Shown here piece by piece: positions 2,909 to 51,964 of a DNA stretch of 64,000 nt. The notes beneath the pieces were generated by a model, which was not told the DNA's origin, made no database searches, and saw nothing but the letters and a program-made list of their open reading frames with translations. The stretch's first letter is position 1. Each line of letters begins with the position of its first letter. The translations under genes and the position numbers were made by a program. This stretch comes from a bacterium (GTDB lineage Bacteria; Pseudomonadota; Alphaproteobacteria; Rs-D84), in contig JAAVBP010000002.1 of NCBI GenBank assembly GCA_014803525.1, forward strand, positions 6,492-70,491, read 5' to 3'.

Positions 2909-3043
2909 CTAATTGCCCCCGCCTGGGCGGGGGCTGGCGTGTGAAACACGACTGGGGGTGGCCATTTACGTACTCCGCAACACTTGCCACCCCCCGATGG
3001 CTAACGCCATCACCCCCCGCCCGCGGCGGTGGGAATTATTACG
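2909..3043. repeat. GC-rich composite palindromic repeat (units a-b-c)
   Basis: Unit a 2909-2936 (GCCCCCGCCTGGGCGGGGGC), unit b 2950-2975 (GACTGGGGGTGGCCATTTACGTACTCC), unit c 2986-3043 (GCCACCCCCCGATGGC..GCCATC..CGGCGGTGGGAATTA). All three recur at 51684-51899. Confidence 0.75.
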
Positions 3044-5362: not shown

Positions 5363-6752
5363 ATTTATACCGATCATATATAACCGGTGTTTTATTTATC
5401 GTATATATCCGCCCGTCATTTTTTCGATTATAGTATATATACATAACATTTGATATTTCGTCATCTGTCATCCATGGGTTGGCGGGGCCGATAACTTGGC
5501 GCTGAGTATTATGGGGAAAGACATGATGAAACGTATTATCAAACACGCGCGTATACGCATCACGAAAAGACGCACTGGTAACCATATTCATAATGATTAC
5601 ACCATCATCAGCAACGCGTGATTTTATCCGGTTCATAAATTCGATCGTGATCAAGTTTTCTGGAATCTGATAAGAATTCGAATACACGTCCAGCAATATC
5701 AGATCATATTTTTCGGGCGTATTTTTCAAATACTGGCTGGCGTCACGAACGATGAACTTTTTGTTGGGTGTCAGTTTCTTGTTTAAAAACTTTTGCTCTG
5801 ATATATCTTTCAGTGTCGGTTCAATATCAACAAATGTATAATCGTTGAAATCATCATTAAGGCCCGCCGTAAAGCCGCCAGCCCCCAATACCAGAATCTT
5901 TCTTTTTTTATCACGCGGCATGTTATAGATAAAATTGTCATTGATATAGTTTATATATTCTGCGCCCATATTATATCCTGGGTAATACACCGACATTGGC
6001 AGACCATTCATATACAGCACACGCACATCATCGCCGCCATTCATAACAGATATTGTGGAATTTGCGTTATTTACCAGTATGCCAAATCGACGTTCCTGCA
6101 GGCCGTTACTGTTTATAACCGCGGCGGCCGCGCATATACATATTGCGGCAACCCCAATACGCACGCGTGGTGTCACAATAAATGCCGCACCCACCGCCAA
6201 TACCACGATTAAAATCACCGTGTTATTCACACCAACAAACGGCATAAACAACAGTGTTGTTGCAATTGATGCAACAACCGACCCAATGGTATCCCATGCC
6301 ATAATATTGCCGGCATAATTTGTATTATATTTATGCAGCATACGTGACAACAGCGTCGTATTAAACCCAAATAAAAACGGCCCAACCGACAGGAATATCA
6401 ACGCAAATATAAATGTTTGAACAACGCCTGATTTAATGCCGACGCCATACATAATGCCAAAGAAATCTGACATTATCGGAAACGATGCGGCGATAACCGC
6501 CATAACCGATATCGTCAGAAACCCGGCACACAGCATTTTACGCGTGCGCGCCACGTCAAAATTACCGCGCGTACCCAGAAAATACCCCAGTGACATAAAC
6601 CCCATAAAGCATCCCATAATAATACTGGTGATGACGGCGGCACTGCCCACGAAAAACGATAATTGACGCATGATCAGCAGTTCCAGGCCCATGCTGACAA
6701 AGCCGTTTAAAAATATAAGAAATACAAGCCAGATTTTCATCTTTTGCGTCAT
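5361..6752 (-). CDS. Fused polytopic membrane / spermidine synthase-like (class I methyltransferase fold) protein
   Basis: About 7 N-terminal TM segments, then ILVLGAGGFTAG..DLILLDVYSN, typical of spermidine-synthase-like domains. Confidence 0.65.
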   Translation of the reverse strand: MTQKMKIWLVFLIFLNGFVSMGLELLIMRQLSFFVGSAAVITSIIMGCFMGFMSLGYFLGTRGNFDVARTRKMLCAGFLTISVMAVIAASFPIMSDFFGIMYGVGIKSGVVQTFIFALIFLSVGPFLFGFNTTLLSRMLHKYNTNYAGNIMAWDTIGSVVASIATTLLFMPFVGVNNTVILIVVLAVGAAFIVTPRVRIGVAAICICAAAAVINSNGLQERRFGILVNNANSTISVMNGGDDVRVLYMNGLPMSVYYPGYNMGAEYINYINDNFIYNMPRDKKRKILVLGAGGFTAGLNDDFNDYTFVDIEPTLKDISEQKFLNKKLTPNKKFIVRDASQYLKNTPEKYDLILLDVYSNSYQIPENLITIEFMNRIKSRVADDGVIIMNMVTSASFRDAYTRVFDNTFHHVFPHNTQRQVIGPANPWMTDDEISNVMYIYYNRKNDGRIYTINKTPVIYDRYK

Positions 6753-8202: not shown

Positions 8203-8231
8203 TTGCTTTTCTGAAAACAATCCGATATAAT
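8203..8231 (+). promoter_or_regulatory. Sigma70-type promoter of leader RNA copy 1
   Basis: TTGCTT (8203-8208), 17-nt spacer, TATAAT (8226-8231). Nearly identical to the promoter at 51646-51674. Confidence 0.75.
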
Positions 8232-8237
8232 GGTCGT

Positions 8238-8385
8238 GCATCGGGTGACGCCCGGTGCGAGGTGTAGTAACCTCCATAGTGATTCTCCAACTGTGGTTGG
8301 AGGGTCGTGATATATATGAATAAACGACACTATACTATGATAGTTACTAACCTCCAACCGCATCTCGTCAGTGCGGGCTTTTTTA
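8238..8385 (+). ncRNA. Structured leader RNA with intrinsic terminator, copy 1 (unclassified family)
   Basis: P1 8238-8258 (GCATCGGG/CCCGGTGC). Long-range P2 8265-8280 with 8334-8349. P3 8285-8302 (CTCCAAC/GTTGGAG). P4 8304-8328 with the 15-nt loop GATATATATGAATAA. CCTCCAACC 8351-8359 is complementary to the P3 3' arm. Terminator stem 8358-8376 plus T6 at 8379-8384. Same architecture at 51491..51640 and 24908..25100. Confidence 0.7.
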
Positions 8386-8387
8386 TT

Positions 8388-8436
8388 CCCCTCCAGGGCC
8401 CGACGGGGCCCGGTCGGAGGGGTGTCACGAAGTGAC
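8388..8436. repeat. GC-rich nested palindromic insertion between leader terminator and HTH gene
   Basis: CCCCTCC..GGAGGGG (8388-8394 / 8416-8422) encloses GGGCC..GGCCC, followed by the GTCAC-GAA-GTGAC hairpin. Absent from the equivalent position in copies 2 and 3. Confidence 0.5.
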
Positions 8437-8476
8437 GGGGAGGGTTCCTTGTCACGTGAAACATATGGAGGAAAAA

Positions 8477-8764
8477 ATGAAAAAGAAAGCAATCAATGAA
8501 ACAGCCGCACGCGTGGGGCACGCACTGCGCACAGCGCGTCAGACGGCACGCCTGACACATGGCGATTCCGCAGATTTGTTCGGTATAACAATGGAAGAGC
8601 AGTTGCAATACGAACGCGGCACTGCCCAAATACCAATTGAGCTTTTAGAGCATATGTTTGTAATGGGCTACAAACTGATTGGTATTCGGATATTAGAAAA
8701 AAAGTATCGAATCAAGCGTGACTTCATTCGTAAAATAAAACAAACAATAAAAGAGGGTATATAA
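8477..8764 (+). CDS. Small XRE/Cro-type helix-turn-helix protein (95 aa), paralog 1
   Basis: GGAGG SD 5 nt before ATG 8477. HTH pattern LRTARQTARLTHGDSADLFGITMEEQLQYERGT. Clear paralog of 51176..51466. Confidence 0.7.
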   Translation: MKKKAINETAARVGHALRTARQTARLTHGDSADLFGITMEEQLQYERGTAQIPIELLEHMFVMGYKLIGIRILEKKYRIKRDFIRKIKQTIKEGI

Positions 8765-24635: not shown

Positions 24636-24662
24636 AAACGGGGCAGATGCCCCGTTTTTTTT
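24636..24662. terminator. Intrinsic terminator shared by convergent genes
   Basis: ACGGGGC-AGAT-GCCCCGT followed by T8. Confidence 0.7.
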
Positions 24663-24885
24663 AATTCATTTTGTAAAGTTCCCATAAACGTAAAAGATAA
24701 TACAGCTCTAATGAGTTACCGCCCTCGCAATCCTTCAAGGCGTCTATGCTAATATCTGCCAGTTCGGATGCATTTTCCAGTGTCAATCCAAAATCCATAC
24801 GCACGGCCTGCAAGAATTTACCGTATTCTACGTTAAATTCCGCTTTTGTCTTTCCCTTTGTCCCTGATGCTGTTGTTTCGACCAT
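24661..24885 (-). CDS. Small XRE-type helix-turn-helix protein (74 aa), divergent paralog 3
   Basis: GAGGGAG SD before ATG 24885. FGLTLENASELADISIDALKDCEGG HTH pattern. Preceded by leader RNA copy 3. Confidence 0.6.
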   Translation of the reverse strand: MVETTASGTKGKTKAEFNVEYGKFLQAVRMDFGLTLENASELADISIDALKDCEGGNSLELYYLLRLWELYKMN

Positions 24886-24907: not shown

Positions 24908-25100
24908 AAAAAAGCCGTCAGTATCTGACGGCGATTGGAGGGACGAACTGTCAACTTTTTAGGAAAAACAGTGTGCTTTATTTATATATATCAGCACACT
25001 CCAATCGCCGTTGGCGATTGATGTTTTACAGCGCCGAAGCGCAAACCTAAAAAGTTGATGTGGGTTCGTCTACCCAATCTGAGCCGTGGCTCAGATACTG
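24908..25100 (-). ncRNA. Structured leader RNA with intrinsic terminator, copy 3 (divergent)
   Basis: On the minus strand: P1 25077-25096. Long-range P2 (GACGAAC/GTTCGTC and CAACTTTTTAGG/CCTAAAAAGTTG). Extra UUCG-capped hairpin 25031-25042. P3 25002-25020 (CAATCGCC/GGCGATTG). P4 24971-24999 with loop GATATATATAAATAA. CTCCAATCGCC (24930-24940) is complementary to the P3 3' arm. Terminator 24914-24932 plus a U-run. Confidence 0.65.
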
Positions 25101-50544: not shown

Positions 50545-51075
50545 TTATTTACCACCTTTGTTTGATGCACGCACGCGCGCAATAACCCAATTCAACAGAT
50601 ACAATCCAACACCCACGCAGATGCAAATATCTGCGACATTAAACGATGGATAGTGTAACGACCCGATATGAAAATCCAAGAAATCAACCACCGCACCAAA
50701 GCGAATTCGATCAATCAAATTACCAATCGCGCCACCCAAAATCAATGCCAGCGGCAGGCGTTCATTCGCACCCGCACGACGTAATGCATAATATCCAATA
50801 AACCCGATAATTGCCGCCGTCGCCACAACCATGAAAATCGGCGCAGCCTCGCCCAGTGCGCGAAACATTGAAAACGACGCGCCCGGATTCCATGTAAACA
50901 CGATGTTAAAGAAATCGGTTACACGTGCGATTATCCAAGGCTGGGGTACGATACTCCATGCGGCGCCATATAATGGAACCGTGCCGGTTACCAGATACAG
51001 CAGAATCCCTTTTGAAATTTGGTCCAGCAAAATCGCCCCGAAAATCACGGCCAAAAATTTAAATAATGACTTCAT
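50545..51075 (-). CDS. lspA: Lipoprotein signal peptidase II
   Basis: WNPGASFSMF, GGAIGNLIDR and FNVADICI motifs. Start at ATG 51075 behind AAAGGGAAAGG. Confidence 0.88.
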   Translation of the reverse strand: MKSLFKFLAVIFGAILLDQISKGILLYLVTGTVPLYGAAWSIVPQPWIIARVTDFFNIVFTWNPGASFSMFRALGEAAPIFMVVATAAIIGFIGYYALRRAGANERLPLALILGGAIGNLIDRIRFGAVVDFLDFHIGSLHYPSFNVADICICVGVGLYLLNWVIARVRASNKGGK

Positions 51076-51175: not shown

Positions 51176-51466
51176 TTACGGTATTTCTGCAACGGTGTGT
51201 CTTAATTTATTAAACACACGGCGTTGACGACGATACCGGTCTTCCAGTGTGCGAACGCGTATCATTTTATAGCCCATAACAATTACGCGTTCCAATACAT
51301 CCGCCGGGATTTTTGTTGTACCGCGTTCGTATTCCAACATCTCGGTCGGGGATATCAACAGCATTTTTGCAACTTCGTCATGGGTCATATAACATATGCG
51401 ACGCGCATTGCACATAATTGCGCCCAGGCGCGATGCGGTTTCATCAATTGGTTTTTGTTTTTGCAT
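51176..51466 (-). CDS. Small XRE/Cro-type helix-turn-helix protein (96 aa), paralog 2
   Basis: SD and spacing identical to paralog 1 (GGAGGAAAAAATG). MTHDEVAKMLLISPTEMLEYERGTTKIP. Confidence 0.7.
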   Translation of the reverse strand: MQKQKPIDETASRLGAIMCNARRICYMTHDEVAKMLLISPTEMLEYERGTTKIPADVLERVIVMGYKMIRVRTLEDRYRRQRRVFNKLRHTVAEIP

Positions 51467-51490
51467 TTTTTCCTCCTTGCTTTTTCTTAT

Positions 51491-51640
51491 AAAAAAGTCC
51501 GCTTTGACGAGAAGCGGTTGGAGGTTAACAACTATTAAAGGTAATAGCGCTGTTTATTTATGTATATCACAGCCCTCCAACCAACGTTGGAGTTTCCTTT
51601 ATGAGGTTGTTAAGCCTCGCACCGGGCGTCACCCGATGCA
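51491..51640 (-). ncRNA. Structured leader RNA with intrinsic terminator, copy 2
   Basis: On the minus strand: P1 51619-51639 (identical to copy 1), P3 51575-51592, P4 51549-51573 with loop GATATACATAAATAA, CCTCCAACC (51516-51524), terminator stem 51499-51517 plus U6. Only ~25 nt to the HTH start codon. Confidence 0.7.
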
Positions 51641-51645
51641 TGCAT

Positions 51646-51674
51646 ATTATATCTGATTGTTTTTGGAAAAGCAA
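51646..51674 (-). promoter_or_regulatory. Sigma70-type promoter of leader RNA copy 2
   Basis: On the minus strand: TTGCTT (51669-51674), 17-nt spacer, TATAAT (51646-51651). Confidence 0.75.
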
Positions 51675-51683
51675 ATTATTATA

Positions 51684-51899
51684 GCCACCCCCCGATGGCA
51701 TTCGCCATCACCCCCCCGCCAACGGCGGTGGGAATTAGTACGTTCACAGCTCGGGCTAATGGCCCCCGCCCGGGCGGGGGCTGTCGCCAAGGGCGACTGG
51801 GGGTGGCCGTTTACGTACTTCCCTATATTTGCTACCCCCCCGCAGTCCACCCACAAAAACATTCGTTTTTGCGGGGCCCAGAAACGGCGGTGGGAATTG
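51684..51899. repeat. GC-rich composite palindromic repeats (units c-a-b-c')
   Basis: Unit c 51684-51742, a 51756-51783, b 51795-51822, variant c' 51831-51899. Same units as at 2909-3043 but in circularly shifted order. Confidence 0.75.
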
Positions 51900-51937
51900 C
51901 TCTGCGACATCATCTGCACTCTGAAAACTGAACTCTA

Positions 51938-51964
51938 TAAAAAATCCCGCGGTTGCGGGATTTT
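51938..51964 (-). terminator. Intrinsic terminator after the CPA2 antiporter gene
   Basis: ATCCCGC-loop-GCGGGAT with a U-run on the minus strand. Confidence 0.7.

Follow-up and report, generated by a model that had tools for sequence, protein, structure and literature searches.

A candidate terminator/antiterminator switch in a multi-copy leader RNA of the alphaproteobacterial lineage Rs-D84

A leader RNA of about 150 nt, which is probably a cis-acting terminator/antiterminator switch operating by transcription attenuation, was found upstream of a small helix-turn-helix (HTH) gene of an Rs-D84 alphaproteobacterium. The window, the whole stretch of 64,000 nucleotides that was analysed, covers positions 6,492 to 70,491 of contig JAAVBP010000002.1 (GenBank assembly GCA_014803525.1). 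The leader and its gene lie at 51176-51674 on the minus strand and are referred to as copy 2; two further leaders of the window are referred to as copies 1 and 3. The leader family has at least 125 instances, nearly all labelled Candidatus Enterousia or uncultured alphaproteobacterial gut metagenome-assembled genomes (MAGs), with genomes of less than 1 Mb. Throughout the family, the anatomy of the leader and its place in front of an open reading frame (ORF) are conserved, and two mutually exclusive folds are both maintained by covariation. As far as the searchable literature shows, the leader is a previously undescribed family of a known kind of regulator.

The family was scanned for, in one genome per species, with a pattern made from the conserved D box and P4 loop of the leader, which yielded at least 113 stretches. 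A covariance model (R1) was built from a seed of 32 copies, and because its structure is limited to P1, P2, P4 and the terminator, it favours neither of the alternative folds. R1 finds 114 copies in 100 sources. The family counts given below cover the matches listed by the pattern and the copies found by the model.

Covariation of two alternative folds

A sequence-only reading of the window had placed a TTGCTT-17-TATAAT promoter at 51646-51674, and this promoter is present base for base in the minus-strand sequence. Hairpins P3 and P4 and the terminator were likewise found as that reading had described them, and its claim of an identical P1 in copies 1 and 2 was borne out by two exact matches in the window (the second at 8238-8262), where none was expected by chance. 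The P4 stem differs between the two copies (GCUGU/ACAGC in copy 2, GUCGU/ACGAC in copy 1) around a near-identical loop (GAUAUACAUAAAUAA). A third, divergent copy, the long-range helix P2/P2a and an antiterminator pairing are elements beyond the earlier reading. The copy 2 leader matched R1 with 146.4 bits (E=1e-35), and its minimum free energy (MFE) was -58 kcal/mol (z=-5.77 against shuffled controls); the values for copy 1 were 147.3 bits and a z of -5.7. The positions of all elements are presented in Table 1.

Fold T is the MFE structure of the single sequence and comprises P1, P2, P2a, P3 (C:D), P4 and an intact terminator. P2 is a long-range helix of GAGG and UGUAGUAAC with GUUACUAA and CCUC, and P2a extends it; here the variable linker that follows the first CCUC is paired with the middle part, likewise variable, of the ACUAU...AUAG segment. 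For 113 distinct sequences, 95.6% of the cells of fold T were paired, 580 cells were changed on both sides, and the covariation score was 0.552, compared with 0.200 for shuffled and at most 0.10 for slid alignments. Covariation above both controls was observed for P1 (7 of 7 pairs), P2 (6 of 7 inner pairs changed on both sides), P2a and the P4 stem (5 of 5 pairs, 99.8% paired); the pairs of the terminator stem covary too. As P2a could not be aligned by column, it was tested sequence by sequence, and the duplex of each leader's own strands (-7.8 kcal/mol) was better than the cross duplex (-3.8 kcal/mol) in 97% of 106 cases (p about 1e-18).

Fold R was proposed by RNAalifold unprompted. It pairs GAGG with the adjacent CCUC (A:B), ACUAU with AUAGU as hairpin P5, and GGUUGGAGG with CCUCCAACC over 9 bp (D:E). 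Covariation was present in A:B (columns 46:63; AU 40, GU 32, GC 30) and in P5 (pair 166:183; UA 91, AU 20). The D:E helix was 99.8% paired, with five pairs changed on both sides and 9 of 9 pairs formed in every properly aligned copy. D was fixed by the scan pattern, and its variation comes from the copies found by the model alone. In these variant copies D and E change in concert and C mostly changes with them (Table 2), a three-way covariation that supports both the C:D and the D:E pairing.

Table 2. Elements C, D and E in leaders with a variant D box
Copy	C	D	E
L098	CUCCUGCC	GGCAGGAGG	CCUCCUGCC
L084, L075, L096	CUCCUGGC / CUCCCGACC / CUCCUGACC	GGUCAGGAGG	CCUCCUGACC
L039 (two copies), L053	AUCCAACC / CUCCAACC / GUCCAACC	GGUUGGAGU	ACUCCAACC
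L078	GCUCCGCC	GGUUGGAGA	UCUCCAACC
L003	CUCCAAC	GGUUGGGGG	CUCCCAACC
Window copy 3	CAAUCGCC	GGCGAUUGGAG	CUCCAAUCGCC

The terminator of the family has a stem (CCGCC.../...GGCGG) of just 5-6 bp and a loop of 7-9 nt. As E ends in the first two bases of this stem (CC), D:E and the terminator exclude each other. Folds T and R cannot coexist either, because P2 and D:E both need the CCUC of E, and P5 draws on the bases of P2a. A single pseudoknot holding D:E together with P2/P2a was rejected on what the geometry would appear to allow, since just 5 nt and the P4 hairpin separate the 3' end of D from the top of P2a, and a stack of ~19 bp would have to be spanned. The combination of P5 with P2a was also rejected, with 0-1 nt left to cross the helix.

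An identity as a DNA-level repeat, be it a miniature inverted-repeat transposable element (MITE), a repetitive extragenic palindromic (REP) element or an attC-like recombination site, would account for the multi-copy state and the inverted repeats of the element. The core of attC is RYYYAAC/GTTRRRY, and CUCCAAC/GUUGGAG is loosely like it. The helices, however, contain many G-U pairs (P1 3:42, GU 64; A:E 46:195, GU 63), which are A-C mismatches on the other strand; the orientation relative to promoter, terminator and ORF is fixed, the C:D loop is just 3-5 nt, and neither terminal inverted repeats nor target duplications were present. The fixed orientation and the G-U pairs led to the rejection of an attC or MITE identity, and a DNA repeat of any kind has a negligible probability.

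At the decision point, the folds have almost equal energies. Just before the 3' arm of the terminator is made, fold T of copy 2 has -50.6 and fold R -48.1 kcal/mol (2.5 apart), and in copy 1 fold R is the MFE structure (-51.0). At full length, fold T with the terminator is ahead by about 5 kcal/mol.

The following mechanism would be consistent with these observations. Transcription from the conserved promoter would give a ~150-nt leader able to take either fold. In fold T (off), P2, P2a and P4 would form, CUCCAAC would hold GGUUGGAGG in P3, and the short terminator would be free to form, perhaps reinforced by kissing with the P1 loop; polymerase would then stop at the U-run, 24 nt before the ATG. 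In fold R (on), GAGG would fold onto the neighbouring CCUC, ACUAU/AUAGU would turn into P5, and GGUUGGAGG would pair with CCUCCAACC and take the first two terminator-stem bases. The terminator would be blocked and polymerase would read on into the Shine-Dalgarno sequence (SD) and the HTH gene, a read-through that is predicted from the sequence. The claim of the sequence-only reading that expression passes through the terminator fits well with the conserved, covarying D:E pairing, a putative competitor of the terminator stem. By computation, the leader has two generic features of riboswitches, a covarying structured domain and a mutually exclusive terminator/antiterminator platform. Beyond this, we infer that a signal interconverts the two folds, which of them it would favour and what it might be.

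Several points weigh against a signal-dependent switch. Termination and read-through are both predicted events, and no effector was identified. The junctions contain few conserved unpaired bases, unlike those of most small-molecule aptamers, and the regulated genes have no common metabolic theme pointing to a ligand. The covariation of D:E rests on about 10 variant copies, because most sequences came via the pattern that fixed D, and double-sided changes are absent from the outer P2 pairs (GAGG:CCUC). Fold T of copy 3 is favoured over its fold R by about 15 kcal/mol (-72.9 compared with -58.2), a strong bias due to a P2a of 12 bp; this leader may require a strong effector or may be off most of the time. 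A few instances have no nearby ORF or lie upstream of another leader.

Some of these points would suit a constitutive structured 5' leader without signal-dependent switching, in which a terminator of fixed leakiness sets a low expression level and the structure stabilises or insulates the mRNA. With such a short terminator some effector-free read-through is to be expected, and neither a ligand-like pocket nor a coherent function of the genes was found. The compensatory changes that maintain both exclusive folds argue against it, their near-equal energies at the decision point are hard to explain without selection for switching, and the P4 loop is invariant even though it lies outside both alternative helices. 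We regard a purely constitutive leader as unlikely, and the attenuation switch as the better account of the two folds.

The P4 loop (GAUAUAYNURAAUAA) is the sole long conserved segment that is unpaired and part of neither alternative helix. This invariant loop is the most likely contact of a putative protein, RNA or small-molecule effector. A second contact might involve P1. In type-A copies, including copies 1 and 2 of the window, the P1 loop is complementary to the terminator loop, over 4.8 nt within the same leader compared with 4.0 nt across leaders (p=0.0015). The loop pairs are UGACG/CGUCA in copies 1 and 2, and GAUUA/UAAUC, UGAUGA/UCAUCA and GUGAUUA/UAAUCAC in other copies. The complementarity is suggestive of a kissing contact, which could clamp the weak terminator in fold T, since P1 and the terminator flank P2. 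Outside type A the two loops are not complementary, and a kissing loop was rejected there, the contact being specific to the type-A subfamily.

Position of the leader and the genes behind it

Among the matches listed, 79 of 122 pattern instances had a TTGnnn-16/17-TATAAT box at a distance of 65-100 nt before the D box. For instances with a recognisable U-run, again among the matches listed, 114 of 116 were followed by a same-strand ORF preceded by an SD, at a median distance of 33 nt. The start of such an ORF lay 10-80 nt past the U-run in 87% of cases (n=116), compared with 14.5% at random positions in the same loci. The outliers with long distances contain GC-rich palindromic insertions, as copy 1 does. 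For copy 2, the earlier reading had estimated about 25 nt from the U-run to the start codon and about 13 nt to the SD; the measured distances are 24 nt (ATG at 51466) and 14 nt (GGAGG, 51476-51472). No further minus-strand promoter was detected by a promoter scan between the copy 2 terminator and the ATG. This consensus scan also missed the copy 2 promoter itself, as TTGCTT agrees with TTGACA at just 3 of 6 positions.

The proposal that there is no room for a separate promoter holds in part. The tight spacer is the rule across the family, with exceptions such as copy 1 and the orthologue of copy 2 in L001, which carry a GC-rich palindromic insertion of ~70 nt in the spacer. A weak internal transcription start before the HTH gene may exist. 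The more general proposal of a cis-regulatory attenuator, as opposed to a free-standing small RNA (sRNA), is backed by about 100 independent recurrences of the order promoter, RNA, terminator, SD and ATG, with a median of 33 nt from U-run to start.

The same features bear on the possibility of an independent multi-copy sRNA gene acting in trans, with seeds for target mRNAs in the CCUCC boxes or the P4 loop, and with the downstream genes expressed by accidental leaky read-through or from undetected promoters of their own. A strong promoter and an intrinsic terminator of its own, many near-identical copies per genome, C/U-rich boxes resembling an anti-SD and a conserved 15-nt loop would all be expected of such an sRNA, and the few orphan leaders that precede another leader and not an ORF would fit as well. 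An independent sRNA gene, however, would not require the same-strand ORF that was found 10-80 nt downstream in 87% of cases, and an antiterminator pairing conserved over the terminator would be purposeless in a pure sRNA. Nor was a target of the P4 loop found above chance: in the window, only the three leaders matched its complement, and in 0.88 Mb of related loci the 49 matches with two mismatches were scattered, patternless and not beyond chance expectation. An exclusive trans function is thus improbable in our estimation; the terminated leader could act in trans besides its cis role as an attenuator.

HTH proteins are encoded by about 63 of the 114 downstream genes (58 + 5 small XRE-type, ~60-130 aa). 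Approximately 35 genes encode proteins with a signal peptide, which are Cys-rich (Ephrin_rec_like), contain the Listeria-Bacteroides repeat (Flg_new) or are outer-membrane beta-barrels. One C5 DNA methylase and one EcoRI-type DNA methylase were also present, and the rest are singletons; the downstream genes share no function pointing to a ligand. The leader precedes most of the small XRE regulators encountered and many surface proteins. It is therefore not specific to HTH genes, being also located before genes of secreted or surface proteins and DNA methylases.

The association with small HTH genes (63 of 114 cases among the matches listed) might indicate that the encoded HTH protein is the effector, binding its own leader RNA to control termination. 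The fold of the copy 2 protein shows a relationship to XRE proteins, among them Aca2 (weakly, E=0.13), which is reported to bind RNA in addition to DNA. The same P4 loop and D/E boxes, however, stand before secreted proteins and methylases, and RNA-level HTH autoregulation is therefore unlikely as a general mechanism. Furthermore, the HTH paralogues have diverged widely (43% identity between those of copies 1 and 2) whereas the RNA elements are nearly identical, and the promoters contain a conserved AATCCGATATAAT stretch, which suggests that autoregulation, if any, operates at the DNA level. Taken together, an HTH effector at the RNA level is very unlikely.

With regard to the attenuation switch, one leader preceding XRE regulators, Cys-rich surface proteins and methylases, which amounts to more than 1% of genes in genomes of less than 1 Mb, probably reflects one co-ordinated regulon. 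This set of regulators, surface proteins and methylases, together with the lack of a pocket-like junction, argues against a riboswitch for a biosynthetic metabolite; a global signal, a protein or an RNA is possible as effector. A bolder version, which we consider rather doubtful, is that the leader represents a novel class of riboswitch, or a novel kind of leader sensing an RNA or a protein, and constitutes the main global regulon of Rs-D84, one signal received via the P4 loop flipping an SD-like/anti-SD-like switch that controls more than 1% of genes.

Copies in the window and distribution of the family

Three leaders are present in the window according to the covariance model, and all three HTH paralogues of the window have one (Table 1). 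Copy 3 matched R1 at 24908-25044 (-) with 34.8 bits (E=3e-7), and its extension to ~25096 was judged by eye. Its P2a is 12 bp long, and it contains an additional hairpin, GCGC-UUCG-GCGC, like type-B copies elsewhere. Many type-B copies (for example L018 4111-4287, L021 210-371 and window 25021-25044) have an extra hairpin of the form UGUC-loop-GACA between P2a and P3, followed by a conserved AUAAAAC; an A-rich linker is found there in compact copies. The extra type-B hairpin may be a tertiary-contact element.

Table 1. Features of the three leader copies in the window
Feature	Position (strand)	Details
Copy 2 promoter	51646-51674 (-)	TTGCTT 51674-51669, 17-nt spacer, TATAAT 51651-51646; near-identical to copy 1 promoter
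Copy 2 leader RNA, ~150 nt	51491-51641 (-)	Likely transcription start to end of U-run
P1 hairpin, GCAUCGGGUGACGCCCGGUGC	51619-51639 (-)	Loop UGACG complementary to terminator loop CGUCA
Element A (GAGG) and P2 5' strand CUUAACAAC, ending in element B (CCUC)	51603-51618 (-)	
Element C (CUCCAAC), P3 5' arm	51586-51592 (-)	MFE fold; sequesters D in the terminating fold; P3 is CUCCAAC/GUUGGAG
Element D, GGUUGGAGG	51574-51582 (-)	Partner is C (P3) or E (antiterminator); RNAalifold consensus
P4 hairpin, 15-nt loop GAUAUACAUAAAUAA	51549-51573 (-)	Stem pairs covary
ACUAU...AUAG segment	51521-51548 (-)	P2a 3' strand CCUUUA 51541-51536; P2 3' strand GUUGUUAACCUC 51532-51521; hairpin P5 in fold R
Element E, CCUCCAACC	51516-51524 (-)	CCUC pairs with A (fold T); entire E pairs with D (fold R)
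Intrinsic terminator	51491-51517 (-)	Stem CCGCUU/AAGCGG, 7-nt loop, then ACUUUUUU; terminator scan; hairpin 51517-51499, U6 at 51496-51491
SD GGAGG and 96-aa XRE-type HTH gene	51176-51476 (-)	SD 51476-51472; ORF 51176-51466, ATG 51466, stop at 51176
Copy 1 promoter and leader RNA	8203-8384 (+)	Promoter 8203-8231, leader 8236-8384, D 8295-8303, E 8351-8359, terminator 8358-8376
GC-rich palindromic insertion	8386-8460 (+)	Between copy 1 terminator and SD; gap in the alignment to copy 2
95-aa HTH paralogue behind copy 1	8477-8764 (+)	43% identical to copy 2 protein
Copy 3, divergent leader	24908-25096 (-)	C=CAAUCGCC (25020-25013), D=GGCGAUUGGAG (25009-24999), E=CUCCAAUCGCC (24940-24930), terminator 24932-24914, U-run 24913-24908
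74-aa HTH-like gene behind copy 3	24661-24885 (-)	HTH_31 match weak

The insertion of ~70 nt in copy 1 (CCCCUCCAGGGCCCGACGGGGCCCGGUCGGAGGGG...GUCACGAAGUGAC...) lies directly behind the terminator U-run and has no second occurrence in the window. A closely similar insert is present at the equivalent site in L001 (2898-2965), which encodes a 91%-identical orthologue of the copy 2 protein; copy 2 of the window is without it. The insert has the look of a small mobile palindrome that inserts directly behind terminators. A GC-rich block of C and G runs and short palindromes was also observed upstream of the copy 2 promoter (51691-51960), having stretches of 26-40 nt with 90-96% identity in common with a block near 2909-3043; these two blocks are another REP-like repeat family.

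The promoter spacer next to the -10 box is kept among the closest HTH copies (AACAATCCGATATAAT; window 8209-8231 and 51646-51668; L001, L006, L017 and L025) and is partly palindromic in L017 (GGATTTAATCC) and L025 (CGGAAAGAATCCG). This conserved stretch may be a DNA operator for autoregulation by the HTH protein.

The gene lspA (ATG at 51075) begins 100 nt past the stop codon of the copy 2 HTH gene, and the earlier reading had suggested that lspA-yidC could be affected by read-through. A GC hairpin (GCCCCCG...CGGGGGC, 51167-51142), which reads as a terminator on the plus strand, is located between the HTH stop codon and lspA, and a promoter-like TTGCTT-17-TATATT of the same flavour as the leader promoters is located upstream of lspA at 51133-51105 (-). 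With this box and the preceding hairpin, an effect of read-through is doubtful, and lspA-yidC probably has its own transcription start.

The copy 1 and copy 2 HTH proteins have few close homologues (just 8 clusters among 5.8 billion proteins), and on the contigs encoding these the same RNA, or at least its 3' part, and a terminator were found directly upstream wherever upstream sequence existed. The copy 2 protein is below the Pfam cut-off (17 compared with 27 bits), with weak HTH_19 and HTH_31 matches; paralogues behind the leader pass the HTH_3 or HTH_31 thresholds (29-37 bits). A PDB sequence search with the HTH protein gave no match. Its AlphaFold model (predicted local distance difference test score, pLDDT, 85.8) has a helix-turn-helix core and a long C-terminal helix, and the best PDB fold matches were 3f51 ClgR, 2b5a C.BclI, 4yba C.Kpn2I and 4pu7 HipB, with a resemblance to ImmR as well. 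As modelled, the protein has the XRE/Cro-C1 HTH fold. ClgR, the C proteins and HipB share the predicted core and the long C-terminal helix with the window protein, but the window genes are monocistronic and do not lie beside restriction, toxin or clp genes. Their neighbours are lspA-yidC, proS and a flavodoxin-like gene, which is not the setting of a restriction-modification controller.

With few exceptions, the matches listed came from MAGs of animal and human guts that were labelled Candidatus Enterousia or, as uncultured organisms, Alphaproteobacteria, Rickettsiales or proteobacteria. Candidatus Enterousia belongs to the order Rs-D84, whose members are uncultured gut bacteria with genomes mostly below 1 Mb and about 900 genes (PMC12306168). 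At least 11 copies were present in single MAGs (CAMWQN, CAMRSV). Typical leaders were also found in assemblies labelled Bacteroidota, namely L038, L067, L096 and L116 (CAZJGX, Muribaculaceae) and L081 (CAVGNU, Bacteroides fragilis); where examined, the genes behind them were XRE HTH genes (L067, L081, L096, L116) and a small unclassified ORF (L038). Mis-binning or contamination probably accounts for these contigs. Tandem leaders were observed in L084 (three in ~650 nt, 1881-2524, -) and L039 (two, 377-788, +), where the upstream leaders precede another promoter and leader, not an ORF; these might be switches working in tandem, copies in decay or independent small RNAs.

At the gathering threshold of Rfam 15, two tRNAs alone passed in the whole window. 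With E up to 10, the matches in 51400-51720 (snoR27, sau-5949, Trp_leader, DnaX) were at chance level and all far below threshold. The leader pattern had no match in 2.9 million viral contigs, and a phage origin was rejected. No description of the leader was found in the literature on Enterousia, Rs-D84 or riboswitch candidates near XRE genes. One bulk catalogue (PMC8040213) contains 3,161 gut RNA candidates, of which 100 are close to HTH-XRE genes; in 200 of its 408 supplementary files neither the D nor the E strings had a match, and the leader may still be listed there.

Significance and comparison with known systems

To our knowledge, nothing is known of gene regulation in Candidatus Enterousia or Rs-D84, and the leader gives a concrete, testable handle on it, possibly also on interaction with a host or partner. 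With at least 11 occurrences in some genomes of less than 1 Mb, it would form an RNA regulon of a density that few known ones reach. To RNA biology it offers a clean orphan switch candidate of ~150 nt, in which both conformers are supported by covariation and a loop-loop contact may clamp the terminator. In vitro tests of the leader do not depend on cultivation of the bacterium.

In ANTAR antiterminators, two hairpins stand in tandem, each with a hexaloop whose first position is A and whose fourth is G, and the second hairpin overlaps the terminator. The only hexaloop-like element of the leader (in P4, AYNURA) has U at position 4 and no overlap with the terminator. The CcsR or 'cuckoo' RNAs are alphaproteobacterial multi-copy sRNAs that act in trans, carry CCUCCUCCC motifs in hairpin loops and follow a small ORF. 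They resemble the leader in bacterial class, multi-copy state and C/U-rich boxes of the anti-SD kind; unlike theirs, the boxes of the leader lie in switching helices, the RNA precedes its gene and no Rfam match was obtained.

T-box RNAs are similar in being multi-copy cis antitermination leaders in which an RNA in trans could stabilise the antiterminator, and the UGGA in D might in principle pair with an NCCA end. The leader differs from them in having no Stem I, specifier loop or T-box sequence in the alignment and no Rfam T-box match, and its downstream genes are not related to aminoacyl-tRNA. The regulons of c-di-GMP-I (GEMM-I) riboswitches have many copies per genome, tandems, and functionally mixed genes rich in surface or secreted proteins and regulators. 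In copy number, gene mix and tandem arrangements the leader is alike, but it has no Rfam riboswitch match and its junctions are without the conserved unpaired nucleotides typical of those aptamers.

Compared with the trp leader, the present leader has no conserved leader peptide, as the share of the 114 leaders with an ATG ORF of at least 6 codons starting at any one alignment column did not exceed about 20%, and the Rfam Trp_leader match was non-significant (15 bits, E=1.6). It also adds a second layer (A:B against A:E, P5 against P2a) and the long P2/P2a helix. In its general design, the leader is nevertheless like trp-type attenuators and riboswitch platforms: of the segments C, D and E, the middle one pairs with either neighbour and the last overlaps the terminator, and the whole is placed between the promoter and the SD of the regulated gene.

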